From the IMG/VR virus record IMGVR_UViG_3300035547_000249: a DNA stretch of 64,000 nt, one strand, 5' to 3'. A model generated the notes under the pieces. It made no database searches. It was not told the DNA's origin and was given only the letters and a program-made list of their open reading frames with translations. The DNA is from a virus. Its lineage: Duplodnaviria > Heunggongvirae > Uroviricota > Caudoviricetes. Made by a program: the position numbers and the translations under genes. Of the stretch, positions 2,216-63,261 are shown one piece after another (position 1 is the stretch's first letter; each line of letters starts with the position of its first letter).

Positions 2216-2552
2216 CCAATTAAACCAATGACACAGTATCAATTAAGATAGTAGCGTATATCATTAAATCACAGAATTTGTTTGTTATGTTTGGATTGTA
2301 TAGTATATTATATTATGGGTGTTGATTATAGTATAATTGAATAGTATATTATATTATAATGTTATTATTGTTTGTTTATGGTGTTCTTGAAGGGTTTTTA
2401 TTATTGTTTGTTATATTATTGGTGTTTACATTAGAACAGTTGATATACTTGCTTCTTCAGACCTTGGGAAACGTTTATTCGCGCGGGCTGTAAAATTGTA
2501 TGTGTAGGTGTTACAGGTAGTGATAGTGGCGGTGTTGGTGAAAACCGCGTAT

Positions 2553-2591
2553 ACCAATGCTTTTGCGTGTGTTTTTTGTAAGAGCATTGGT
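2553..2591 (+). other. Stem-loop with a 9-bp perfect stem (ACCAATGCT/AGCATTGGT) and a 21-nt loop, inside a G/T-rich non-coding stretch
   Basis: Inverted repeat read directly; it sits in the 2240-2660 non-coding region upstream of the first gene of the array. Confidence 0.4.
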
Positions 2592-2675
2592 ATAAGCTGT
2601 TTTCTCTAAAATGGGTATAGTAGTATAGTAATTAAATAGTATTAAATAGCATTAAATACAAGGAGTTTTGATAAA

Positions 2676-5351: not shown

Positions 5352-5810
5352 ATGAAAAAGTTATCAAGTATTAACCACAGCTTAATTTTGTCTTTAATCG
5401 TTGCCCTCATCGCATTCAGTGTAATTTGTTCCACTGCATGGGCTGAGACAATTGGAGAATCAAAATCATCAGGTCTTTTGCTTAAGGATACAATAAGTGT
5501 AAATGCTTTCGATGATCCTGATTATTCAAGTATAGTATGTTATACAACAAATGTTGAAATTGGGGGACCCAACCTTGAAAATCCCTCTAATTCGTCAATT
5601 TCATGCAGGATGATTGATCATTTTAAGGGAACTCCAAAATCAAGGAATGATGTGTTCTCTAAGGCAAAGAGTCCGTTCTTTAAGAAGTTAACAGTGGATA
5701 GGTTTTATGATAAGAAACGCAATGTTCTGGTATACCTGTCCTATACAAAAAAGATGTCAGGGAGTAACGCGTCACATTCAGTGAGTGTGGTTCCTCTAGG
5801 GATAAAATAA
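5352..5810 (+). CDS. secreted protein with an N-terminal signal peptide (…TAWA/ET)
   Basis: RBS AAGGAG; N-terminal basic-hydrophobic segment with an AxA-like cleavage motif. Confidence 0.5.
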   Translation: MKKLSSINHSLILSLIVALIAFSVICSTAWAETIGESKSSGLLLKDTISVNAFDDPDYSSIVCYTTNVEIGGPNLENPSNSSISCRMIDHFKGTPKSRNDVFSKAKSPFFKKLTVDRFYDKKRNVLVYLSYTKKMSGSNASHSVSVVPLGIK

Positions 5811-5826
5811 TAGGAGAAAATAGACA

Positions 5827-6156
5827 ATGATACAGTTTTTATTTGCAACATTAGGTGCGTGGGTAATTTGGGTAATATATATCGTTATCAATACCCTGGC
5901 ATGGGCAATTTGTATGGAACACTGGGATGATATGATTTCTAACCTCGCAGATGAGGAAGAAATTGATGTCGGTGAATTTATTTTCGCGGCGGGCTCTTGG
6001 TTATTCTTTCCGATTATACTGGTAGTGATATTGTTTTGCAAAATATCGGTATTTATTATAAACCAAATCGTTGAGCCAGGTTTCAAAAAGTTCCTTAAGG
6101 CATTGCTGAAAATTATCCCAAAGTTTGAATTCAAAGTTAAATTTAAAGGAGATTAA
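5827..6156 (+). CDS. small membrane protein
   Basis: Three hydrophobic segments. Confidence 0.45.
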   Translation: MIQFLFATLGAWVIWVIYIVINTLAWAICMEHWDDMISNLADEEEIDVGEFIFAAGSWLFFPIILVVILFCKISVFIINQIVEPGFKKFLKALLKIIPKFEFKVKFKGD

Positions 6157-6322
6157 TACGGATTTTGAATCTGAGGTCACCAAAATTGTTGAAGAATACG
6201 GAGCACCTGAAGATATCACAAACGAAATAGTTGAATTTCTTATTAATAGTGGGAACATATATACTATTATAGAAATCGCAAAAGAAATGGATATCTAAGT
6301 AAAATTAAAAAGGAGTATTACC

Positions 6323-7039
6323 ATGAAGATAGGAATTACAGAGCGTGGAGATGCAGCATTGGATATGTCGTGGGTCAATAAGATGGATACTGTTGATGGG
6401 GCGATATTGATTACGAAAGCGGTGTCATCCAAAGAGTTTCAGAATGCTGTAAAAGAATTCAAAGACAAGGTTATTATCCATGCTACTATTACTGGTTATG
6501 GCGGTACTCCTATTGAACCAAATGTTCCAAGTCACGAAGAAACGATGGATAGTTTGTATGAACTAGAATCTTTTATGCCTGAGGGGCATGTTGTTCTTCG
6601 TATTGATCCTGTTATACCAAACGATGCTGGTAGAACTTGGATACCTTATTTGATAAACAAGTTGCCTACCTCAATCAAAAGAGTAAGATTTAGCATAATT
6701 GACAATTATAAACATCTTTCTGCGCGGGGGCTGGAATTGCCTTGGAAGACGTTCCATGCCCCACCTCAATTAATATCTAATGTTGTCAATGACTTTATGA
6801 AATTTTCACATACACATAGTATAGAATGCTGTGGTGAAGATCACCCATTAATACCAATGGTGTGGAAAAAAGGATGTATATCAGATTGGGATTTGATACT
6901 TCTTGGATTAGATTTCATGCAAGTTCCAAAAGTCACATCAAATCAACGTAAATCGTGCAGATGTTTGTCTGTAAAAACAGAATTATTAACCAGAAGAAAA
7001 CAATGCCGCCATGGCTGTTTATATTGTTATTGGAGATAA
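6323..7039 (+). CDS. Cys-rich putative Fe-S protein (DUF1848-like C-terminal CxC…CxxGCxYCY cluster)
   Basis: RBS AAGGAG; C-terminus …CRCLSV…CRHGCLYCYWR. The family assignment is from memory only. Confidence 0.35.
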   Translation: MKIGITERGDAALDMSWVNKMDTVDGAILITKAVSSKEFQNAVKEFKDKVIIHATITGYGGTPIEPNVPSHEETMDSLYELESFMPEGHVVLRIDPVIPNDAGRTWIPYLINKLPTSIKRVRFSIIDNYKHLSARGLELPWKTFHAPPQLISNVVNDFMKFSHTHSIECCGEDHPLIPMVWKKGCISDWDLILLGLDFMQVPKVTSNQRKSCRCLSVKTELLTRRKQCRHGCLYCYWR

Positions 7040-11975: not shown

Positions 11976-12826
11976 AAACAAAATGCAATTGTTGTGACGG
12001 TATTTATAATTCTTTTGATGTACATTTTACCAGTGCTTGTGATAATAAATGTGCCCATTGTGTTGATCTTTGTTATAATGGTTTAGGAATTAATAAACCA
12101 GATATTAGTGCAATTATTAATACAATTATAGAAAATGAAGACGGTGTTGATGATGTTCTTTTTCTGGGTGGAGAACCTTGTTTATACTTAAATGAATTAA
12201 TATCGTGTATAATTCAAATAAAAAAGAAAACAAATCTTAAGGTGTATGTAACAACCTCTATACCAAAGACCTGTTATACTGATAGAAATAAATTCATCAG
12301 ATTAATAGAAGAGGTAGATGGAATCAATCTATCTGTACAACACTATCGAGAGGATATAGCAGATCAGATAAGAAGAACAGTTTCAAAGTATGACAGACAA
12401 AGTTTCTATTCAGGTCTTCCTCACAAAGAAAAGATCAGAATCAATATAAATATTGTTAAACCCTTTCTTTATACTAAAAGAGATATATCTAATTGTTTAA
12501 GGCATTATGATAAAATGGGGTTTAATTCAATAAAGCTATCAGAGATACAACACGGAAAGGATGTGTATGTATCATTCTGTGATATTTTTGGTATAAAAAT
12601 GGGGTCTGCTTATTCTAATGGGTGTCAATCTTATTTAGAGATGGATAAAATATTGCCCGGATTTGTGACACCGGTATTGCTTAAGAGATCTTGTTTTTTG
12701 TGTGAAGACAGTCTAAAAGCATCAATTTTCGATGGTATTAAAATGTTATCAAAATTAATTAATACACCAGATAACAAATATGGTGTAATATATGAAAATG
12801 GACAATTAATGAAAGGATGGATATAA
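11972..12826 (+). CDS. radical SAM enzyme (CDNKCAHC)
   Basis: Start taken at ATG 11972 overlapping the upstream stop (ATGA). Motifs …FTSACDNKCAHCVD… and …LFLGGEPCLY…. Confidence 0.65.
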   Translation: MKTKCNCCDGIYNSFDVHFTSACDNKCAHCVDLCYNGLGINKPDISAIINTIIENEDGVDDVLFLGGEPCLYLNELISCIIQIKKKTNLKVYVTTSIPKTCYTDRNKFIRLIEEVDGINLSVQHYREDIADQIRRTVSKYDRQSFYSGLPHKEKIRININIVKPFLYTKRDISNCLRHYDKMGFNSIKLSEIQHGKDVYVSFCDIFGIKMGSAYSNGCQSYLEMDKILPGFVTPVLLKRSCFLCEDSLKASIFDGIKMLSKLINTPDNKYGVIYENGQLMKGWI

Positions 12827-13392: not shown

Positions 13393-14355
13393 GTGAAAAT
13401 AAAAGACGTATTGTATCTTCCAAGTGGCAGGGTCTTTATCCAGGAAATGCATGATGGCTACATCATAGAATCAACGGAAATGAGAGATGTAGCTGTAGAT
13501 GGTAAGTTACATGCAGAAGTAAGAGAAACACAAAATCCTCAGAAAGTATGGAAACATCTTGTGCCATACGAGAAGAAATGGTTATTAACAGTTAGCACAC
13601 AAAAGGGCTGTGTACATAACTGTAAATTCTGTGATGTTGCCAACCTACCCTTTAAAGGAAATCTGGAACAACATGAAATTGAAAAACAGGTATTTAACCT
13701 GTTAACATCAAGCCCATATGTAACAAAAAGCAATAAAGTTAAAATTGGGTTCGCAAGAATGGGAGAGCCTGCATGGAATATTGAAAATGTTCTTGGTGCT
13801 ATGAAGAATCTTCCTTCAATATCTGATTTAATGGGAATGAGTTTTAAATGGCTGCCCTGCTTTAACAGTATATTGCCAAGAAAAGCCAATGTTTTGGAAG
13901 AAGTGATAGATTTTAAAGAAAGCGTTTATGATGGTGTGTTGCATTTTCAAATATCCTGTAATTCAACAAACGAAGAAAAGAGACAGGAGCTTTTTGGCGG
14001 GGCTGATGTTCTTTCGCTAGATGAAATAATTCCAATAGTAAATAAGCAAAAAATTACAAACAGAACTATTACCCTTAACTTTATTGTTATGAAAGGGGTA
14101 GAAGTTTCAGTAGAAAAACTCAGAAAAATGGGCTTAAACGGAGATAAGTTCACAGTAAAATTAATACCACTCAACAACACAAAAAACGCAGAAAACAATG
14201 AACTCGAAACATTCGCTAACTATTCAAATTACGAAGATTTAATTAAGTTAGGCGAAGAATTCAATAAAAACGGTGTTCCTGTAGTAATTGACGCAATAGC
14301 TAAATGCGAGGAGGCTGGATTATGCTGCGGACAACTTGCCCAAATATATCTGTAA
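13393..14355 (+). CDS. radical SAM enzyme with an RlmN/Cfr-like cluster motif (…VSTQKGCVHNCKFCDVANLPFKGNL…)
   Basis: GTG start after AGGAGAAG. The motif closely parallels the RlmN/Cfr …SSQVGCxxxCxFC…G(F/L)xRNL… segment. At 320 aa the protein is shorter than RlmN. Confidence 0.6.
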   Translation: MKIKDVLYLPSGRVFIQEMHDGYIIESTEMRDVAVDGKLHAEVRETQNPQKVWKHLVPYEKKWLLTVSTQKGCVHNCKFCDVANLPFKGNLEQHEIEKQVFNLLTSSPYVTKSNKVKIGFARMGEPAWNIENVLGAMKNLPSISDLMGMSFKWLPCFNSILPRKANVLEEVIDFKESVYDGVLHFQISCNSTNEEKRQELFGGADVLSLDEIIPIVNKQKITNRTITLNFIVMKGVEVSVEKLRKMGLNGDKFTVKLIPLNNTKNAENNELETFANYSNYEDLIKLGEEFNKNGVPVVIDAIAKCEEAGLCCGQLAQIYL

Positions 14356-30532: not shown

Positions 30533-32164
30533 ATGAAATACAACAAACACATAAATTTAAGAAGTACACCTCAAACAGAACCGATCTTAGGAAAAAATAT
30601 GAAGCCCAATAACTCTGGTGGTTATGGGTTTGAAATTACCGATAAAATGACATTGGATCGTTTTCTAATATTGGGAACCGAAGGCGGAACATACTATGTT
30701 GGAGAAAGAAAATTAACAGTTGACAGTGTAAAAAGTGTCATTAAGTTAATCAAAGAAGACGGTCAGTATGTAGTAGACAGGGTTGTAGAAATATCAAGTC
30801 AAGGAAGAGCTGCGAAGAATGGTCCTGCTTTATTCGTACTATCCTTATGTACAGCACCAAGTTTCGCAGATGTCGATACTAGGAAAAAAGCATTTGATTG
30901 CTTACCAAAAGTAGCTAGAATTCCAACCCATCTTTTCGAATTCTTAGAATATATGAAATCATTCAGGGGTTGGGGTAGAATGGCTAAAAATGGAATTCAA
31001 AACTGGTATCAAAGTAAACCTGTAAAACAATTAGAATTCCATATGGTAAAATACAGACAAAGAGACGGATGGACGCATAACGATGTCTTGAGGCTGGCCA
31101 AACCAATCCCTGTAGACATTGAGCACGATATGTTGTATGAATTCGCAAAAAAGGATAGAATTGACAGAGAAAACAACTTCAAATTAATTGAAGGTTATAT
31201 AAAAGCTAAAGAAGCCAAAACAGAAAAAGAAGTAGTTTCATTAATTAATGAATATAATATTCCGATTGAAACAATTCCTACTCAATTCAAGAACTCTAAA
31301 ATGGTATGGGAGGCAATGTTACCAAATCTTCCAATAACAGCAACTATTAGAAATCTAAAAAATATGGCTGTTTATGGATTGTTAAAACCGTTCAGTGACT
31401 CTTCTAAAATGGTAGCTGACAAAATTAGCAATAAAGAAGTCATAGAAAAAGGAAGAGTACATCCAATTCAGTTTTTGAATGCAATTATGACGTATCCTAA
31501 AGGAAGAGATAGAATTTTCCAAGGCGCGTTTGGTGCATTTGCGAACAAAAACAACAAACCATTAGAATGGGTAGTGGATAAAGATATTGTAGAAGCTTTA
31601 AACGCAGGGTTTTACCATGGATTCAGAAATGTAATTCCATCCAATAAAAGAATACTGGTTGCATTAGATGTTTCTGGTAGTATGGGATGGCAGCCGTGTT
31701 TGGGGATGAAAACAGTTAATCCAAGAGAAGCATCAGCAGCCTTGGCATTAACAACAGTGAACACGGAGCCTAATCACCTTATAGGGGTATTTACCAGAGA
31801 GTTTGAGCAATTCAATGGTATAAAGCAAGGTATGGATATAAATTCTGCTATTAAAACAATATCAAATTTAAAGTTTGGTTCAACTGACATATCATCGCCA
31901 ATTCATTGGTTAGAAAAACACAAAATAGAGGTAGATGCTATAGTGTGTTATACTGACAATGAAACTTATTGGAAACAAAGTGACCATCCGTGTCAAGCTT
32001 TAAGCAAATACAGACAAAAATTTGGCTTAAACACCAAACTGGTATCTGTATCAATGTGTGCAAATAAAACAACTGTTGCAGATCCTGAAGACCCAAATAT
32101 GTTGGATATAGTGGGTTTTGATACTGCTACACCAAAAGCCATTTCAGAATTCTTAAATATGTAG
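30533..32164 (+). CDS. rsr: Ro60/Rsr orthologue (TROVE domain + vWA domain)
   Basis: …DRFLILGTEGGTYYVGERKLT… and …GRAAKNGPALFVLSLC… parallel Ro60 TROVE motifs. C-terminal …ILVALDVSGSMGW… is a vWA MIDAS motif. RBS GGAGG. Confidence 0.75.
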   Translation: MKYNKHINLRSTPQTEPILGKNMKPNNSGGYGFEITDKMTLDRFLILGTEGGTYYVGERKLTVDSVKSVIKLIKEDGQYVVDRVVEISSQGRAAKNGPALFVLSLCTAPSFADVDTRKKAFDCLPKVARIPTHLFEFLEYMKSFRGWGRMAKNGIQNWYQSKPVKQLEFHMVKYRQRDGWTHNDVLRLAKPIPVDIEHDMLYEFAKKDRIDRENNFKLIEGYIKAKEAKTEKEVVSLINEYNIPIETIPTQFKNSKMVWEAMLPNLPITATIRNLKNMAVYGLLKPFSDSSKMVADKISNKEVIEKGRVHPIQFLNAIMTYPKGRDRIFQGAFGAFANKNNKPLEWVVDKDIVEALNAGFYHGFRNVIPSNKRILVALDVSGSMGWQPCLGMKTVNPREASAALALTTVNTEPNHLIGVFTREFEQFNGIKQGMDINSAIKTISNLKFGSTDISSPIHWLEKHKIEVDAIVCYTDNETYWKQSDHPCQALSKYRQKFGLNTKLVSVSMCANKTTVADPEDPNMLDIVGFDTATPKAISEFLNM

Positions 32165-59162: not shown

Positions 59163-59960
59163 ATGAAAAAAGATTTATACGATGTAGTAGACATCAAAGA
59201 AGTAAAAAAGGACAATAATAAGTCGAATTACCCAAAACATTTGCTAGGAGAAAGTGCAAAAGAAGCACAAGAAACATTTGAAGAGTTTAAGGGTATGATT
59301 AACAATATGGTTAGATCATACTCAAAAGCGACAGGAGTTCATAGAGAAGATTTATTTAATGAATGTATTTTTGCGTTAGCAAAGGCAAAGAGGGACTATG
59401 ATAAAAGCAAAGGTAATTCATTAAAAACTTATGCCAAATATAGTATGGTAGACGCTATATGTGATTATATAAGAAAGAATGTATCACAAGTAAATATACC
59501 GTCTTATATAAATAAGGCTCATAGGTTAATTAATAGAATAAAATTTATCACCAAAAATAGAGAAGATTGGTTAGATTTTATTCTAAATAATGAAATTAAA
59601 AATGATGAATTGAATAATTGCATAAATTCTCTAAAAAATATGTCAATTAGGTGTGGTATAAGCTGCAAAGATCTGGTTGAAAGATCTGAGTTCATGCCCA
59701 CCCACTTGAATGAATGTGATGTAGACAGTATAGAATCAGATAGAAGTAATGTAATCACGAAAATACTAGTAAATGATATTCTATCTAACTTATCTGATGA
59801 GGAAAAATTAGTATCAAAAATGATCATGGAGGATATGAACTATACAGAAATGGCAAGAAAATTAAATAAATCTGATTCATATATTAAATCTAAAGTGAAC
59901 TCAATTAGGGATAAAGCAATAAAAATAATTAAAAAGGATATTGTGAATGAATTCGATTGA
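59163..59960 (+). CDS. sigma-70-family sigma factor
   Basis: Region 2-like …LKTYAKYSMVDAICDYIRKN… and region 4.2 HTH-like …YTEMARKLNKSDSYIKSKVNSIRDKAIK…. Start taken at ATG 59163 after GAGGGTAAT. Confidence 0.6.
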   Translation: MKKDLYDVVDIKEVKKDNNKSNYPKHLLGESAKEAQETFEEFKGMINNMVRSYSKATGVHREDLFNECIFALAKAKRDYDKSKGNSLKTYAKYSMVDAICDYIRKNVSQVNIPSYINKAHRLINRIKFITKNREDWLDFILNNEIKNDELNNCINSLKNMSIRCGISCKDLVERSEFMPTHLNECDVDSIESDRSNVITKILVNDILSNLSDEEKLVSKMIMEDMNYTEMARKLNKSDSYIKSKVNSIRDKAIKIIKKDIVNEFD

Positions 59961-61347
59961 GATACTGAAAAAATTAGAAAAAGACACTAAGAAAAAATAC
60001 GGAACTGAGGTTTTTATAACTGGAGGTTTTGTAAGAGATTTTCTTAGAAAAAAGAAAAATAATGATTTAGATGTTATAGTTAGGTTTATGCCTATGGACA
60101 AAGTTGAAAACTTTTTGTCTAAATATGGAAAAACCAAATCTATTAGCATACATAAAAACAATCCTATAGATATAATCATATTTCAATCTCCAACTGATGA
60201 TTTTGAAGTTCAGGTCATGCCGCCAAAAGGAAGAAAGAAAGGGCAAGACTCTGTTTTAAATACTCTAAAACAAGACAGTAAAGAAAGGGATTTTACAATA
60301 AACTCTATGTATGTTTCAGTGAACAACATATCTTACAAGAGCGTTATTGATTATTGGGGAGGAAAAGATAGTATAAAAAGTAGAATAATAATTACTGTTG
60401 GTAATCCAAACACTGTTATTAAGAAATCCCCAATAAGGATGCTAAGAGCTTTTTCTTTAGCAAGCAGAATTAGATATACTATATCTAAGGAGTTGTTTGA
60501 TTCTATAAAAAAGAATAAAGAACTCATAAGGAATTCATCGTTTGATGAAATCAGAAATGAATTTGTGGAGATTTTGTTATCTAAAGAGCCTTCCAAATAT
60601 ATAAAACTTATGCAAAAATCTGGGTTGTTGAAAATTATAATTCCAGAATTGGAAGACTGTGTAAAATGTTCCCAAGATAACAGATTTCATAAATATTCTG
60701 TGTTTAATCACTTAGTATATACATGTGATAATACAGAACCTGATGTAGTAATGAGGCTTGCTGGTCTATTTCATGATATAGGAAAGCCAGTTATAAAAGG
60801 TCACAAAGGAAACAAAATGACTTTTCATAAACATGAAGTTGTTGGAGCTAGAATTGCAGCTGTAATTATGAAAAGGCTTAGATTTAGTAATGAAATAATC
60901 TCCAAAGTCACCCACCTAATCAGAATGCATATGTATCATTACACAAGGGAGTATTCTGATGCCGGTGTTAGAAGATTTATTAATTCTTCTGGTGTCACTA
61001 AACAAGATTTGGACAATTTGAGTGAATTTCCACTATTCAAACTTAGAGTAGCAGATCGTCTTGGAAACGGTTATAAAAGTAAACCAGTAACAGCAAGACA
61101 GATTGATTTTGAAGAAAGGATAAAAAGAGTATACATTGAAAGTAATGGCCTAACGTTATCAGATCTTGCTGTTGATGGAAATGACATAATGACTACATTT
61201 TCAATTAAACCTTCAAAAAAGGTCGGCAACATACTCAAATATTTACTTGAACGTGTAATGGAAAATCCAAAACTTAATAACAGAAACGATTTATTACACT
61301 TAACGTTAGATTTGTTGGAGAAAGAAAGTGGTGATGAAAACAAATGA
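59947..61347 (+). CDS. cca: CCA-adding enzyme / tRNA nucleotidyltransferase with a C-terminal HD domain
   Basis: Head motif …VFITGGFVRDFLRKKKNNDLDVIV…; HD motif …GLFHDIGKP…. Confidence 0.7.
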   Translation: MNSIEILKKLEKDTKKKYGTEVFITGGFVRDFLRKKKNNDLDVIVRFMPMDKVENFLSKYGKTKSISIHKNNPIDIIIFQSPTDDFEVQVMPPKGRKKGQDSVLNTLKQDSKERDFTINSMYVSVNNISYKSVIDYWGGKDSIKSRIIITVGNPNTVIKKSPIRMLRAFSLASRIRYTISKELFDSIKKNKELIRNSSFDEIRNEFVEILLSKEPSKYIKLMQKSGLLKIIIPELEDCVKCSQDNRFHKYSVFNHLVYTCDNTEPDVVMRLAGLFHDIGKPVIKGHKGNKMTFHKHEVVGARIAAVIMKRLRFSNEIISKVTHLIRMHMYHYTREYSDAGVRRFINSSGVTKQDLDNLSEFPLFKLRVADRLGNGYKSKPVTARQIDFEERIKRVYIESNGLTLSDLAVDGNDIMTTFSIKPSKKVGNILKYLLERVMENPKLNNRNDLLHLTLDLLEKESGDENK

Positions 61348-61349
61348 AG

Positions 61350-62170
61350 AATCAAAAATGGTTTTTGTGGAGGGTTTGGGAGTTGGTAGTAACAAGAACT
61401 GATATCGTGTGACGTTTTACGGTATTAGTCTTTATATAGTGTGTTAAGTTTCATAATAAAGACATTAAAAAGTATCATCAAATATACTTCTTGGCTCATG
61501 CCAATAAAATGGAGTATGATGAAGAACATAATGTAAATTATTATGTAAAACAGCTTCAAAGCATATACCAGGTGTTGATGCAACAATGTTTAATGTTTAT
61601 CCGGCTAGGAATTATTCTTTAGTTCGCGGGGTGGATTGGATTATATCGCTCCGATATAATTTAATGAAAACTGCGTGGGTCTTGAAATTGAACATTGTGA
61701 AATATGGTTCGAATCCATTTTGAAGTAAAATAATACACACAAAGAGGAATAGCGGTCATCCTGTTATTCCTCAAAAGTATCTCACATCTAATTTTATAAT
61801 CAATAGCCTACACCGAAAGATCTCGCAAACGAGTAGCACTATGTGAAAGTAACCGACATCGAATAAGTAAAAGTGCGTTATTATACTAGTTAGAGAGAGC
61901 TTAAGAACGAGTGGGTAGGTGGGTGGGAAAGTGCCGTTGTATGAGATATTATACATTCGGCACAAAAGACCTCTACATAGGGTAGAGTGATTATACATAC
62001 ATTACTTCTCCTTTTAAAGTGTATGGGTAGGATGCTTTTCACGATTTAGTATCCTACCAAAAGATAAAAAAATGGGGCCACAACATAAAAACAATCAAAA
62101 ATACTGTTTATGGGAGTTATAATGTTGTCTCCCTTAAAGGCCCCAACAAAAATATAAAATGTAGGAGTGG
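61350..62170 (+). other. 820-bp non-coding, highly structured region (several strong hairpins and a T-loop-like GGTTCGAATCC); candidate ncRNA or regulatory hub
   Basis: No ORF with an RBS. Perfect stems include AGGAATA/TATTCCT (61749-61775), GGTAGGAT/ATCCTACC (62018-62050) and nested GGGGCC…GGGAG/CTCCC…GGCCCC (62075-62150). Confidence 0.45.
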
Positions 62171-62174
62171 TATT

Positions 62175-62516
62175 ATGTTATATGAATATATGTTTGAAAA
62201 CGAAGATTTTTTCGATGATGAAGAACACCAAGAATCTTTTGATGACAACGAAAAATATCAAATAGATGAAAATAATGAAATTGATTACCCAGACGATATC
62301 GATCCATTTATAATAGGTGGTATTGTTGGTGGTATGATAAGCGACGAGCTACAAGACAATATTCCAAAAAGAAAAAGTATTTCTCTAAAGGAAGAAAGAG
62401 ATATATTGGAAGAAAAAAATGTAAATTCCAATAGAAGCAAGAAACTAAGACCTTTTGAACAATATGTTAAAGATGTAACATCTGGAAAAGTGAAATTGGA
62501 TAAACCGTATGATTAG
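62175..62516 (+). CDS. hypothetical acidic protein
   Basis: RBS GTAGGAG. Confidence 0.45.
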   Translation: MLYEYMFENEDFFDDEEHQESFDDNEKYQIDENNEIDYPDDIDPFIIGGIVGGMISDELQDNIPKRKSISLKEERDILEEKNVNSNRSKKLRPFEQYVKDVTSGKVKLDKPYD

Positions 62517-63261
62517 CATATATGGTAGACCAGGCTCACACGCAGTAAAAGAAATAGTAAAAGGCACAAGTCTGGTTAGATACAGAAAAGAGTGTACAAC
62601 TGTTGTAAATTACGGACTTGCTGGAAAAAGATTGGATTTTTTCAGAAAAAAATTTCCTAGTTCTATAAATAAACCAACAATTAATAGAAATATAGGAATA
62701 TCAAAATATAAAATGGTGAAGAGTGTAGAATCTATTGGATTACCTGTTCCAGATTCATATATAAAATTGCCAAACAGTCTTGATTATAATGAGTTCATAA
62801 TAAAGAAATTTAATTCTCAAGGCGGAAAAGGTATTAAGTATGCAACCAAAAGATCTCAAACAACAGGCTATTATTACCAGAGGTTCATAAATGAAAGACA
62901 ATACGAGTTAAGAGTACATGCTTTCTCATGGATAAGTGAAGATGGTTGGTTAGTACAAAAAAGGATTGGTGATAGAGATAAAATAGCGTGGAATTTTTCT
63001 GAGGGCGGAAAATTTTATACTATAACCAACAAAAAAACAAAGATTATAAAAGAAGCTATAAATATAACAGCAAAAGTATTAAAAAAGATGGATATGGGGT
63101 TTGGAGCTGCTGATTTTATATTGGACAACAATAACAGATTGTTTTTTATAGAAATTAATTCCGCTCCAGGATTTGAAAACTTAAGCAGACCTTATTACAT
63201 AGATGTGTTTAATCACCTGTGTAAACTTGATAAAAATAAGGTCCTATTTTATGCGACATAA
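62509..63261 (+). CDS. ATP-grasp ligase (second copy)
   Basis: …KFNSQGGKGIKY… and C-terminal …GFGAADFILDNNNRLFFIEINSAPGFENL…. Confidence 0.6.
   Translation: MISIYGRPGSHAVKEIVKGTSLVRYRKECTTVVNYGLAGKRLDFFRKKFPSSINKPTINRNIGISKYKMVKSVESIGLPVPDSYIKLPNSLDYNEFIIKKFNSQGGKGIKYATKRSQTTGYYYQRFINERQYELRVHAFSWISEDGWLVQKRIGDRDKIAWNFSEGGKFYTITNKKTKIIKEAINITAKVLKKMDMGFGAADFILDNNNRLFFIEINSAPGFENLSRPYYIDVFNHLCKLDKNKVLFYAT

Follow-up and report, generated by a model that had tools for sequence, protein, structure and literature searches.

What occupies the long interval downstream of the CCA-adding enzyme gene in a phage genome that otherwise leaves little space between its genes? The window analysed here is the whole 64,000-nt stretch of the IMG/VR record IMGVR_UViG_3300035547_000249, and its remainder is dense with genes on the + strand, in agreement with the tight packing noted earlier. 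The gap under study (61348-62174) extends from the stop (61347) of the CCA-adding enzyme gene (59947-61347) to the ATG at 62175 and measures 827 nt. The ORF listing contains only short frames in it, which bears out the earlier description of a long gene-free region. Neither frame nor length of these ORFs is kept in the closest relative, locus L001, with the single exception of a 31-codon frame (61441-61536). This frame was rejected as a gene, since it lies inside a covarying hairpin, carries W-to-R changes, has no RBS and is missing from the other relatives. At the 5′ border, the DNA matches the 3′ end of an ORF of 59-68 aa (...FKKDFGEELL vs SKMVFVEGLG) which is intact after or overlapping the CCA gene in L008, L136-L139 and L141, while its N-terminal part is missing from the window. 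Judged from this alignment, the first segment listed in Table 1 is likely a remnant of the ORF C-terminus, and it probably lies outside the RNA described below.

The earlier note had called the gap hairpin-dense and proposed, among other readings, that it encodes an ncRNA. The minimum free energy (MFE) of the gap is -230.6 kcal/mol, compared with -180.2 ± 7.0 kcal/mol in shuffles (z = -7.25), and the folding is thus far beyond chance. In the consensus of the window and L001, whose CCA-adding enzymes are 86% identical, the energy amounts to -140.05 kcal/mol on the + strand, -86.15 kcal/mol on the - strand and -77.7 ± 6.2 kcal/mol in column shuffles; the excess structure is confined to the + strand. 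A comparative alignment for covariation, as the earlier note had suggested, showed that the stems are kept in L001: the two sequences have 190 consensus pairs in common, 23 with compensatory double changes (10.3 ± 2.8 in shuffles) and none broken. Furthermore, identity of the window to L001 is 75% over the gap, compared with 55-61% at the third codon positions of four flanking genes, and a segment of 50 nt (61973-62022) is 100% identical. L001 is the only close relative available, and the more distant alignments were made partly by eye. Taken together, structure limited to one strand, the compensatory changes, the signs of purifying selection and the shared gene order strongly support an ncRNA gene as the general reading of the gap. 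Our best explanation, with a probability of roughly 0.6, is that a structured + strand ncRNA of ~700 nt, processed to tRNA mimics, is encoded in the gap by one gene or by an array of tightly linked genes. This RNA would be a reduced member of a modular family situated between the CCA-adding enzyme gene and a tRNA/Y-RNA island in a clade of large phages.

Table 1. Features of the gap, in window coordinates.
Feature	Position	Strand	Basis or remark
Likely C-terminal remnant of a ~60-codon ORF	61348..61394	+	alignment to relatives' ORF
Hairpin H1, 13 bp, 8-nt loop, then CUUUAUAUA	61395..61431	+	terminator scan
5′ strands of P1 (UAUAUA) and P2 (GUGUGUUA)	61433..61446	+	RNAalifold consensus
P3, long interrupted hairpin, five helical segments	61448..61551	+	RNAalifold
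tRNA-like element 1, full cloverleaf	61553..61727	+	MFE fold and conservation in 12 loci
Element 1 acceptor stem, 7 bp, GCTTCAA with TTGAAGT	61553-61559 with 61720-61726	+	
Element 1 D arm, loop AUACCAGGUGUUG	61561-61581	+	
Element 1 anticodon-type stem	61583-61590 with 61691-61698	+	
Element 1 insert replacing the anticodon loop		+	106 nt, structured
Element 1 T arm, loop UUCGAAU	61703-61719	+	
Element 1 discriminator A	61727	+	CCA not encoded
P2 3′ strand UAAUACAC	61731..61738	+	closes domain with P3 and element 1
Element 2, 12-bp minihelix (7-bp acceptor-like and 5-bp T-stem-like), loop UCAUC, then AAAAG	61744..61777	+	
Central subdomain closed by P5 (61780-61793 with 61888-61898)	61780..61898	+	RNAalifold, compensatory changes vs L001
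ACCGAAAG within the central subdomain	61812-61819	+	small hairpins also in subdomain
Invariant (U/A)CGAGUGGG, then G-tracts with free linkers	61907..61927	+	family signature motif
Two hairpins, 61931-61963 (then AAAAG) and 61971-61987	61931..61987	+	site of relatives' 1-3 Y-RNA-type modules
C/U-rich motif CUUCUCCUUUU and P1 3′ strand	62005..62025	+	conserved block in all relatives
P1 3′ strand UGUAUG	62020-62025	+	RNAalifold consensus, pairs with UAUAUA
11-bp hairpin GGUAGGAUGCU with AGUAUCCUACC, then AAAAG	62026..62063	+	alternative pairing noted
3′-terminal pseudoknotted element	62074..62144	+	covariation in 9 loci
Helix A, GGGGCC with GGCCCC	62074-62079 with 62139-62144	+	
Helix B, ACAACAT with ATGTTGT	62080-62086 with 62122-62128	+	makes pseudoknot
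Helix C, GGGAG with CTCCC	62112-62116 with 62129-62133	+	
Conserved ACUGU in the pseudoknot	62102-62106	+	

Compared with L001, hairpin H1 has two pairs changed on both sides, five changed on one side and none broken. Its G-U pairs exist on the + strand only, and analogous hairpins are present in L006 and L008. H1 either closes the CCA transcription unit in the manner of a terminator or opens the RNA as its first helix. The scan for sigma-70-type promoters gave 9 sites vs 10 expected, none of which stands out. As a repeated promoter, TTTATATAGTRGT before P2 was discarded, since it shows no enrichment (14 matches vs 11.8 expected). Helix P2 is found at a fixed position with wholly different sequences in 10 other loci, for example GTAGTAAATTTTTC/GAAAAATTTACTAC in L008 and TACAGTATACCTT/AAGGTATATTGTA in L069. 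The sequence of P1 is invariant, and this helix therefore has no covariation support. P3 carries three double and two single compensatory changes relative to L001; more distant relatives possess a short hairpin at this site, with different sequences in L008, L067 and L069.

A tRNA T-loop-like sequence had been recognized in the gap earlier, supposedly without a matching acceptor stem. The T-loop is confirmed, as GGTTCGAATCC (61706-61716, + strand) is the sole match to GGTTCRAWTCC in the 64 kb, with 0.06 expected. The lack of an acceptor stem is not, because a 7-bp acceptor stem, a D arm and an anticodon-type stem accompany it. Element 1 thus has the acceptor, D, anticodon and T stems of a canonical tRNA in the normal order, with an open acceptor stem whose strands are 165 nt apart, and carries its long insert instead of the canonical 7-nt anticodon loop. 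All four cloverleaf stems occur in 12 loci (the window and 11 relatives), in which the insert measures 78-223 nt. The cloverleaf test on the acceptor, D and T stems showed 92.7% of cells paired and 10 of 15 pairs changed on both sides, a pairing count that is somewhat inflated because segment offsets were picked within ±2 nt to maximise pairing. None of 500 shuffles reached the observed value, and slid controls gave 38-52%. ARAGORN with default settings returned nothing on the window, nor did the Rfam tRNA model match the gap at E ≤ 10.

These observations bear on the earlier idea of an attP-like tRNA-fragment site, according to which the T-arm region would be a copy of the 3′ half of a host tRNA used for integration. 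The perfect T-loop consensus is the one observation that speaks for it. However, this T arm is one part of a cloverleaf that is complete and covaries, and the exact 22 nt of T arm and acceptor 3′ half were found once in 185,579 species genomes, in an unrelated, non-tRNA context with dissimilar flanks. In addition, there was no integrase among the 30 proteins scanned, and we give an attP site practically no chance of being correct.

Element 2 displays three double and four single compensatory changes in 11 pairs relative to L001. The same position holds a genuine tRNA-Tyr(GUA) in L094, class-II tRNA-like genes with aberrant anticodon loops in L088 and L093, and an acceptor stem combined with a hairpin and a T arm in L057, L058, L067, L069 and L071. 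It could be argued that the gap consists of decaying tRNA pseudogenes, or of an intron-containing decoder tRNA from which the 106-nt insert is spliced out. Real tRNA genes do lie in the gap of some relatives, element 2 resembles a shrunken tRNA-Tyr, and L001 has a 126-nt tRNA with a 59-nt insert in the anticodon loop. The gap is nevertheless not decaying, because many compensatory changes maintain the pairing and it evolves more slowly than synonymous sites. Moreover, no conserved anticodon-loop sequence adjoins the anticodon-type stem of element 1, where the insert varies in both length and sequence, and ARAGORN found nothing in the gap with introns allowed, in tmRNA mode or with lowered thresholds. 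The enclosing P2 and the 3′ domain are likewise not features of a tRNA. Both the pseudogene and the intron explanation are consequently very improbable, and the non-decoding, structured ncRNA remains the preferred reading.

In the central subdomain, P5 is complementary with different sequences in L006, L008, L058 and L067, as judged by eye. The core of the signature motif, UCGAGUGGG, is kept in ~20 loci whose CCA enzymes share only 45-57% identity. For the G-tract motif, no constant or covariation-backed pairing partner was found; a G-quadruplex and a fixed helix partner were both considered and set aside. The hairpin at 61931-61963 folds with z = -6.0, and the hairpin pair to which it belongs shows one double compensatory change relative to L001. 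Relatives carry CCUCCUU as the counterpart of CUUCUCCUUUU, a motif that is anti-Shine-Dalgarno-like. The 5′ strand of the following 11-bp hairpin is a near-repeat of the G-tract motif. This hairpin has two one-sided, G-U-compatible changes compared with L001, and equivalent hairpins followed by A(U/A/C)AAG are present in all relatives.

Near the 3′ end, the earlier note had reported a nested two-helix element. Both of its helices (A and C) are real; the 12-nt loop, on the other hand, is not a plain one, since seven of its bases pair in helix B. Across nine loci, 97.4% of the cells of this pseudoknot are paired and 11 of 17 pairs changed on both sides, a value reached by none of 500 shuffles and compared with 32-52% in slid controls. 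Model R2 identifies a single copy in the window (62071-62148, 70 bits), and 17 loci, distant ones included, have one copy each at the 3′ terminus of the RNA. In the window, GGCCCC is followed by AACAAAAAUAU with no U-tract, and the terminator scan makes no call there. In the window, the terminal element thus does not show the GC-rich stem with a directly following U-tract that marks an intrinsic terminator or attenuator.

The same region is relevant to the proposal that the gap acts in cis as a leader (a riboswitch or attenuator, as also suggested earlier, or a translational operator) for the 62175 ORF and the ATP-grasp operon. A leader would suit the position of the element, which stops 18 nt short of the AGGAG RBS and 30 nt short of the ATG, as well as the U-rich tracts present after helix A in several relatives and the potential of CUCCUU to pair with AGGAG-type RBS sequences. 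The missing U-tract in the window argues against it, as does L001, which is without the terminal element owing to a 78-nt indel and nonetheless keeps the downstream gene and its RBS. Furthermore, no Rfam riboswitch or leader matches the gap, other ORFs or tRNA genes stand between the RNA and the ATP-grasp gene in some relatives, and ~700 nt of tRNA-derived modules are unlike any known leader. We therefore consider a cis-acting leader unlikely and favor an RNA gene in its own right.

The family to which this RNA belongs is apparently undescribed; in a group of giant phages, its place is next to the gene for the CCA-adding enzyme. Dozens of metagenomic phage loci have the same gap, 0.5-1.9 kb long, bordered by the CCA enzyme gene on one side and by a small ORF with an ATP-grasp gene on the other. 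The order CCA gene, gap, small ORF, ATP-grasp gene is found in L001, L006, L008, L136-L139 and L141 and also in many of 80 JGI loci. Within this clade of large phages, at least two encode Ro60. The Infernal/Rfam scan, another suggestion of the earlier note, gave the gap no match: only tRNAs and noise were returned at the gathering score for the whole window and 19 relatives, and at E ≤ 5-10 for the gap and 9 relatives. BLAST of the gap against 50,697 phage records and tblastn of the RNAP-like protein yielded no match either, and the CCA enzyme has only distant phage matches. Looking for related loci in IMG/VR via the CCA enzyme and via Ro60 returned none. A G-tract pattern scan produced 46 IMG/VR loci, which were rejected as chance matches, mostly in high-GC DNA, none having the motif architecture of the family.

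Ro60 (rsr) is encoded in the window itself (30533-32164), on the same strand as the gap and 29 kb away. Covariance model R1, which describes Y-RNA-type modules, has 27 matches at E < 0.1 in relatives and downstream of the window, plus three in L141, whose RNA lies at 5607-6718. In L006, L008, L057, L069, L136, L137 and L141, one to three Y-RNA/sbRNA-like modules lie inside the homologous RNA, at the site equivalent to 61931-61987. The phage from which the window comes carries two modules of its own, situated ~2.7 and 3.2 kb downstream, past the window end and in the tRNA island (L002, 12919-13002 and 13422-13573). They contain GCCGAAG and GCCGAAAG, and the Y stem of one (13424-13572) encloses a T arm. 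A module matches Rfam family RF01656 (ceN72-3_ceN74-2) with 28.8 bits (E = 4e-4 in a 311-nt search; gathering score 38).

In the gap of the window, R1 with filters off detects no module and overlaps only the minihelix, at E = 2.9. A regular-expression search for GNCGAAN0-1G found none in 61340-62180, the nearest sequence being ACCGAAAG at 61812. In the hairpin at 61931-61963, which occupies the homologous site, CCG is fully paired, and both the bulge and UUAUC are missing; it was discarded as a Y module because R1 gives no match. The earlier thought of a Y-RNA-like partner for Ro60 would thus apply to the RNA of the relatives and to the downstream modules, but not to a module in this gap. Since the window copy is without a recognisable Ro60-binding module, the link between the gap and Ro60 is indirect here.

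The window RNA might even so be the Y RNA partner of the phage Ro60 itself, its tRNA-like domain recruiting an effector as in YrlA. The rsr gene in the window and the modules at equivalent positions in relatives are consistent with such a role, and ACCGAAAG comes near the module core ACCGAAG. YrlA joins a Ro-binding stem with a tRNA-like domain, and that of M. smegmatis is cut by RNase P and CCA-tailed (PMC4201824). Conversely, the three negative results for the gap, the clear modules elsewhere in the phage and the 29 kb to rsr, as opposed to YrlA genes lying within 4 kb, render this proposal rather unlikely.

According to the preferred reading of a reduced family member, the long-range helices P1, P2 and P5 and the invariant motifs (UCGAGUGGG with G-tracts, CUCCUU) would constitute a scaffold. 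It would bear non-decoding tRNA-derived modules, namely the cloverleaf with its folded insert, the 12-bp minihelix, several hairpins and the 3′ pseudoknot, and to this common scaffold relatives would add one to three Y-RNA-type modules of the Ro60-binding kind. Once transcribed, the RNA may be recognised by RNase P at the 7-bp acceptor stems, cut at N-N-AAG trailers by the 3′ endonuclease for the CCA-less tRNAs of the phage, and CCA-tailed by the enzyme encoded directly upstream. The phage tRNAs have no encoded CCA, and 16 of 25 have AAG directly after the discriminator + C. In the window, A-A-AAG follows the minihelix and two hairpins (61773, 61964 and 62059), and A(U/A/C)AAG follows the helices of relatives. 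After the acceptor 3′ strand of element 1, L001 and most relatives have AAG, but the window has AAAA in place of N-AAG.

From this we infer a tRNA-mimic RNA processed by tRNA enzymes. Its products would be stable tRNA mimics that serve as ligands, decoys or tethers in an RNA repair and quality-control set, and not in translation. This set would comprise Ro60, an Rnl1-type ligase, a kinase-like protein, RlaP and the CCA enzyme, all of which are encoded in the window; tRNA clusters lie downstream of the gap.

More speculatively, and with appreciably less confidence, the family could represent a new class of giant modular phage RNA, in which a scaffold displays interchangeable cargo modules and forms one hub particle for Ro60, CCA-adding and tRNA-processing or repair enzymes. 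The scaffold parts in such a particle would be P1/P2/P5, the UCGAGUGGG G-tracts, CCUCCUU and the 3′ pseudoknot, and the cargo would be tRNA mimics without an anticodon, minihelices of the acceptor type and as many as three Y-RNA stems of the metazoan type. By analogy with GOLLD or ROOL, the particle might even self-assemble. Under this reading, the anti-Shine-Dalgarno-like CCUCCUU beside RimK-like ligases might point to an action on ribosomes.

Few natural RNAs are as poorly understood as large structured phage RNAs of the GOLLD/ROOL type, and bacterial Y RNAs have been described in a small number of systems. At a single locus, the present family joins tRNA mimicry with Y-RNA/Ro60 biology and with the enzymes of the phage for tRNA repair (CCA enzyme, RNA ligase and kinase-like protein). 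Its members form a natural series, with a genuine tRNA-Tyr at one end and a bare minihelix at the other, and with Y modules numbering from none to three. It is therefore testable which module binds Ro60, which one receives a CCA tail and what the scaffold does. Y-RNA stems with metazoan and nematode hallmarks (bulged C, UUAUC) in phages also bear on the origin of Y RNA. In addition, annotators gain a model for gaps beside CCA-enzyme genes that gene callers and Rfam leave empty.

Several known systems can be compared with the gap RNA. The T4 stable RNAs C and D (species 1 and 2) are small, are co-transcribed and co-processed with phage tRNAs and have acceptor-stem-like termini. They may resemble the gap RNA in these respects, but are single units of ~120-140 nt with no known homology. 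Like element 1, tmRNA combines an acceptor stem and a T arm with a reduced D region, and a long helix takes the place of the anticodon arm; in L006-type relatives this helix leads to an H-type pseudoknot (GGGGG..GUCGAU..CCUCC..GCAAAAA..AUCGAC). However, no acceptor stem contains G3:U70 (the 3:70 pairs are U-A, C-G or A-U), there is no conserved tag frame, in-frame stops after GCA are at variable positions, and the element has 150-280 nt compared with ~360 nt for tmRNA. ARAGORN in tmRNA mode and the Rfam tmRNA models were silent. A tmRNA-like reading of GCAAAAA was rejected because the distances to in-frame stops are inconsistent and G3:U70 is absent.

The hallmarks of metazoan Y RNA and nematode sbRNA are a lower stem with a bulged C in ...CCGA(A/U)G... 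and CUUG on its 3′ strand, and an upper stem topped by a loop that has UUAUC at its 5′ edge (PMC4450293). They occur in the modules of relatives and downstream of the window, but the phage modules are tandem and either embedded in a larger RNA or placed between tRNA genes, and none is in the window gap. YrlA and the gap RNA both have a tRNA-like domain (D arm, T arm and acceptor stem) with no anticodon and come from Ro60-encoding genomes. The RNA of relatives also has Ro-binding-type stems, and in L002 the Y stem surrounds the T arm. In contrast, the window copy is without a Ro-binding module, and its RNA of ~700 nt far from rsr differs from the 100-130 nt of YrlA. Furthermore, YrlA is permuted: both of its ends lie in the Ro-binding stem, and a loop closes its acceptor stem. 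It runs from the 5′ strand of the Ro stem through the T arm, the closed acceptor hairpin and the D arm to the 3′ strand of the Ro stem. Element 1 does not follow this order and instead has normal tRNA topology, an open acceptor and an insert at the anticodon position.

Finally, the sequence motifs of GOLLD and ROOL are unlike those of the gap RNA, and their Rfam models gave no match at the gathering score or at E ≤ 5-10, either in the window or in 19 plus 9 relative loci. In their general design, however, these RNAs resemble the gap RNA, being phage-encoded, longer than 500 nt, highly structured with pseudoknots and placed beside tRNA islands. The present loci likewise combine a large RNA with a neighbouring tRNA island and, in some cases, embedded tRNAs, the gaps being 0.5-1.9 kb long and containing tRNA or tRNA-like modules. 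In GOLLD, the 3′ region is conserved, and the 5′ region varies and in some cases includes tRNAs (PMC12286853), a layout that fits the one seen in the gap RNA.

Between the stop of the CCA-adding enzyme open reading frame (ORF) at 61347 and the start of the next convincing ORF at 62175 lie 827 nt, in which all ORFs are 31-75 codons long. Elsewhere, the 64-kb window has hardly any gaps and carries nearly all its genes on the + strand, which bears out the long non-coding gap described in an earlier note. Its hairpin density was likewise confirmed, as the minimum free energy of the gap is -230.6 kcal/mol compared with -180.2 ± 7.0 for dinucleotide shuffles (z = -7.25). ARAGORN detected neither a tRNA nor a tmRNA in the window, and the gap DNA matched none of 50,697 phage records. 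An Rfam scan, also proposed in that note, gave no match at gathering score in the window and none at E <= 10 in the gap. One 31-codon GTG-initiated frame (61441-61536) corresponds to 5705-5800 of the closest relative, L001; the two frames differ at 7 of 31 residues, and two of these changes are W-to-R. It was judged non-coding, since it lies inside the covarying hairpin P3, lacks an RBS and is missing from other relatives.

Searches with the CCA enzyme protein retrieved the identical protein on several metagenome contigs (L002-L005), an 86% identical one in L001 and a tier at 53-57%. All fetched loci share the gene order GATase/COOH-NH2 ligase/ATP-grasp genes, GNAT, RuvB-like, sigma, CCA enzyme, gap, small ORF and ATP-grasp. 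A JGI metagenome scan with the downstream ATP-grasp protein yielded 80 loci (41-52% identity). In many of them, the 0.5-1.9 kb after a CCA-sized ORF contain no ORF. Related contigs reach 230-318 kb, and therefore these genomes are of jumbo-phage size. Genuine class-II tRNA genes lie inside the gap of some relatives (tRNA-Tyr in L073, L094 and L105; tRNA-Leu in L071), and tRNA clusters sit downstream of the ATP-grasp gene. No description of such an RNA family was found in Rfam 15 or the literature searched.

Gap identity between the window and L001 is ~75%, compared with only 55-61% for third codon positions in the four flanking genes; within the gap, the block 61973-62022 is 100% identical. 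Structure statistics were calculated with RNAalifold on this two-sequence alignment and compared with the - strand and column shuffles. The consensus energy was -140.05 kcal/mol on the + strand, -86.15 on the - strand and -77.7 ± 6.2 in the shuffles; the corresponding values were 23, 16 and 10.3 ± 2.8 for pairs changed on both sides, and 18.25, 10.25 and 9.95 ± 1.7 for the covariation term. The 190 pairs of the + strand comprise 23 double changes, 27 one-sided G-U-compatible changes and none broken, so the comparative alignment suggested earlier indeed finds the stems kept with covariation. Many maintained pairs are G-U, compatible with the + strand only. The gap harbors a strand-specific, selected and modular RNA structure, with a conserved family and synteny.

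Features of the gap RNA (window coordinates) and Y-RNA-type modules of the continuing contig L002
Feature	Position	Strand	Description
ORF remnant	61348-61394		looks like remnant of ~60-codon ORF, intact in L008, L136-L139, L141
H1	61395-61431	+	covarying, terminator-like hairpin
P1	61433-61438 with 62020-62025	+	long-range helix
P2	61439-61446 with 61731-61738	+	encloses P3 and element 1
P3	61448-61551	+	long hairpin within P2
Element 1	61553-61727	+	full cloverleaf; 106-nt insert in anticodon-loop position
Element 2	61744-61772	+	12-bp minihelix; 7 compensatory changes vs L001
P5	61780-61793 with 61888-61898	+
Signature UCGAGUGGG with G-tracts	61907-61927	+	invariant across loci with CCA enzymes ~45-57% identical
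Two hairpins	61931-61987	+
CUUCUCCUUUU	62005-62015	+	CCUCCUU in relatives
11-bp hairpin	62026-62058	+
Terminal element	62074-62144	+	GGGGCC...GGGAG-N12-CTCCC...GGCCCC; helices A, B, C
Y module 1	L002 12919-13002		R1 44 bits; exactly between tRNA-Leu and tRNA-Trp
Y module 2	L002 13422-13573		R1 29 bits; Y stem enclosing T arm (13424-13572), YrlA-like

Helix P2 recurs in 10 further loci at an equal relative position with 8-14 bp, its strands being unrelated in sequence but complementary. The RNA may work as a single particle or in processed pieces, and P2, P5 and the fixed module order at least favor an organized precursor. The T-loop consensus has a single match in the window (GGTTCGAATCC, 61706-61716; 0.06 expected). 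This T-loop had been thought to lack a matching acceptor stem; however, the acceptor (GCUUCAA with UUGAAGU) is present and forms a full cloverleaf with a D stem (GCAU with AUGC, GG in the loop), an anticodon-type stem (ACAAU(GUU) with (AAC)AUUGU) and a T arm (UAUGG-UUCGAAU-CCAUU). All four stems are kept in 12 loci despite sequence change, with an acceptor of mostly 6-7 bp (range 4-7), a D stem of 4/4, an anticodon-type stem of 5/5 in 11 of the 12 and an insert of 78-223 nt. In the trimmed alignment, with segment offsets picked within +/-2 nt for maximal pairing, 92.7% of cells are paired, 10 of 15 pairs changed on both sides and 0/500 shuffles were as good, while slid controls reached 38-52%. 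ARAGORN reported no tRNA at element 1 with introns allowed; together with covariation and selection, this contradicts an origin of the gap as tRNA pseudogenes or an intron-containing tRNA. An attP in the T-arm region, the tRNA-fragment site of the earlier note, is contradicted by a genome scan, in which the 22 nt of T arm and acceptor 3' half had a single exact match, the unrelated L140 1066-1087 (Crocinitomicaceae MAG, JBIIFU010000002.1). This site has no flank similarity and no tRNA, and the match is probably due to chance, although its taxon, Flavobacteriales, would suit a 32% GC phage. In L006, L008, L057, L067 and L069, an H-type pseudoknot (GGGGGUUU..GUCGAU..CCUCC..GCAAAAA..AUCGAC) is conserved as the insert of element 1; it recalls tmRNA PK1 but lacks a tag frame. 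The insert of the window and L001 is collapsed to a hairpin with CUC(C/U) in its loop.

At the position of element 2, relatives carry a true tRNA-Tyr (L094), class-II tRNA-like genes with abnormal anticodon loops (L088, L093) or, in L057-type loci, an acceptor stem, one hairpin and the T arm only. Judged by this position and the G/A-rich acceptor stems, element 2 appears to be a progressively reduced tRNA-Tyr. The gap RNA carries tRNA-derived modules that are unable to decode. A search for a constant pairing partner of the G-tract motif found none. The 5' strand of the last hairpin (GGGUAGGAUGC, 62025-62036) is a near-repeat of this motif (GAGUGGGUAGG, 61909-61919), also in relatives (GAGUGGGG, GAGUGGAG), so its 3' strand could pair with either copy, and a switch or a duplicated ligand site is possible. 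The conserved CCUCCUU motif resembles the anti-Shine-Dalgarno end of 16S rRNA and adjoins RimK-like ATP-grasp genes (62509-63261) and an acidic 113-aa ORF.

Helices A and C of the terminal element agree with the nested two-helix element recognized earlier, but its plain N12 loop does not hold, since helix B (ACAACAU with AUGUUGU) occupies this loop and creates a pseudoknot. Across nine loci, 97.4% of cells are paired, 11 of 17 pairs changed on both sides and 0/500 shuffles were as good. R2, the covariance model of this element, finds exactly one copy in the window and one at the RNA 3' end in 17 loci, including distant non-seed loci. The element is missing from L001 by a clean 78-nt indel and is therefore a dispensable module rather than a general regulatory element. 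The missing element in L001 and the fact that neither a terminator nor an Rfam match was found weaken the interpretation of the gap as a cis-regulatory leader, and the riboswitch or attenuator envisaged before was not substantiated.

In relatives, 1-3 tandem modules of the form stem-ACCGAAG-upper stem-UUAUC...CUUG-stem lie between the G-tract motif and CCUCCUU, and 13 of 18 pairs covary among 17 aligned copies. One copy matched Rfam RF01656 (nematode stem-bulge RNAs CeN72/CeN74-2) with 28.8 bits (E = 4e-4, 311-nt search; below the gathering score of 38), having the GGUCCG-type, UGGGUUAUC and CUUGACC motifs in common. Stem-bulge RNAs are homologues of Y RNAs; their defining features are an upper stem, a lower stem containing a bulged C, and UUAUC at the edge of the loop (PMC4450293, PMC4726728). 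R1, the covariance model of these modules, detected 27 copies across 51 loci, every one on the + strand, and a further three in tandem in L141, but gave no match in the window gap even with filters off. Y-type modules thus lie in the homologous RNA of relatives but not in the window gap, which weakens the earlier proposal of a Y-RNA-like Rsr partner, with the window RNA binding Ro60 directly. The window encodes Ro60 (30533-32164), an Rnl1-type ligase, RlaP and a kinase-like protein. Through L002, two Y-RNA-type modules of this phage were located downstream, past the window end (~64865-65519 in window coordinates). They contain GCCGAAG and GCCGAAAG, fitting the YrlA motif GNCGAAN0-1G (PMC4201824), and are likely the true partners of the phage Ro60. 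The tRNA-Leu/Y module/tRNA-Trp arrangement also occurs in L057 and L006. The data on L141 (ERZ27248007 k141_490408, 318,366 bp) suggest that CCA homologue P0016 and Ro60 homologue P0127 both lie on this jumbo-phage contig; L142 has no Y module <=3 kb from Ro60.

L001 also contains a 126-nt tRNA (12015-12140; Rfam tRNA model, 51.5 bits) whose 59-nt anticodon-loop insert includes the 5' half of a Y-type module (AAAAGACCGAAGUACGAGGUUAAUC) and which may be a tRNA/Y-RNA chimera. The best R1 match in the window (2535-2612, GAAAACCG...CCAAUGC/GCAUUGG...UGUUUUC, without UUAUC) is weak (16.8 bits, E = 0.12) and could reflect either a degenerate Y-like hairpin or a chance similarity. Nearby, at 1750-2250, a ~22-nt unit (GTATTAATCTATACAGTATCATA and variants) is repeated in tandem ~20 times; this array, in an ORF-poor 1.5-kb region (1155-2676), may represent iterons/origin, a promoter array or a genome-end repeat.

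Phage tRNA genes without encoded CCA occur in L001, L006, L008, L057 and other loci, which fits the phage's own CCA-adding enzyme. Sixteen of 25 have C and then AAG directly after the discriminator, and this conserved trailer is presumably a 3'-processing signal. A-A-AAG follows the window minihelix and two hairpins (61773, 61964, 62059), and A(U/A/C)AAG follows helices in relatives. Behind the acceptor 3' strand of element 1, most relatives have U-AAG and L001 has A-AAG. Mainly from these shared trailers, we infer that one 3'-processing activity acts on both the tRNAs and the RNA modules. The transcript would be cleaved by RNase P and a 3' endonuclease, and the processed modules would become substrates of the CCA-adding enzyme encoded directly upstream. 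Within phage RNA repair/quality control, the gap RNA may then serve as a tRNA-mimicking ligand, decoy or tether.

We rate the gap RNA as a phage tRNA-like/Y-RNA-type non-coding RNA. By their testable membership criteria, it falls outside tRNA, YrlA, Y RNA, GOLLD/ROOL and tmRNA. It is similar in size and setting to the large phage RNAs GOLLD and ROOL, and its closest likeness in mode of working would be with YrlA, the tRNA-mimicking Y RNAs.
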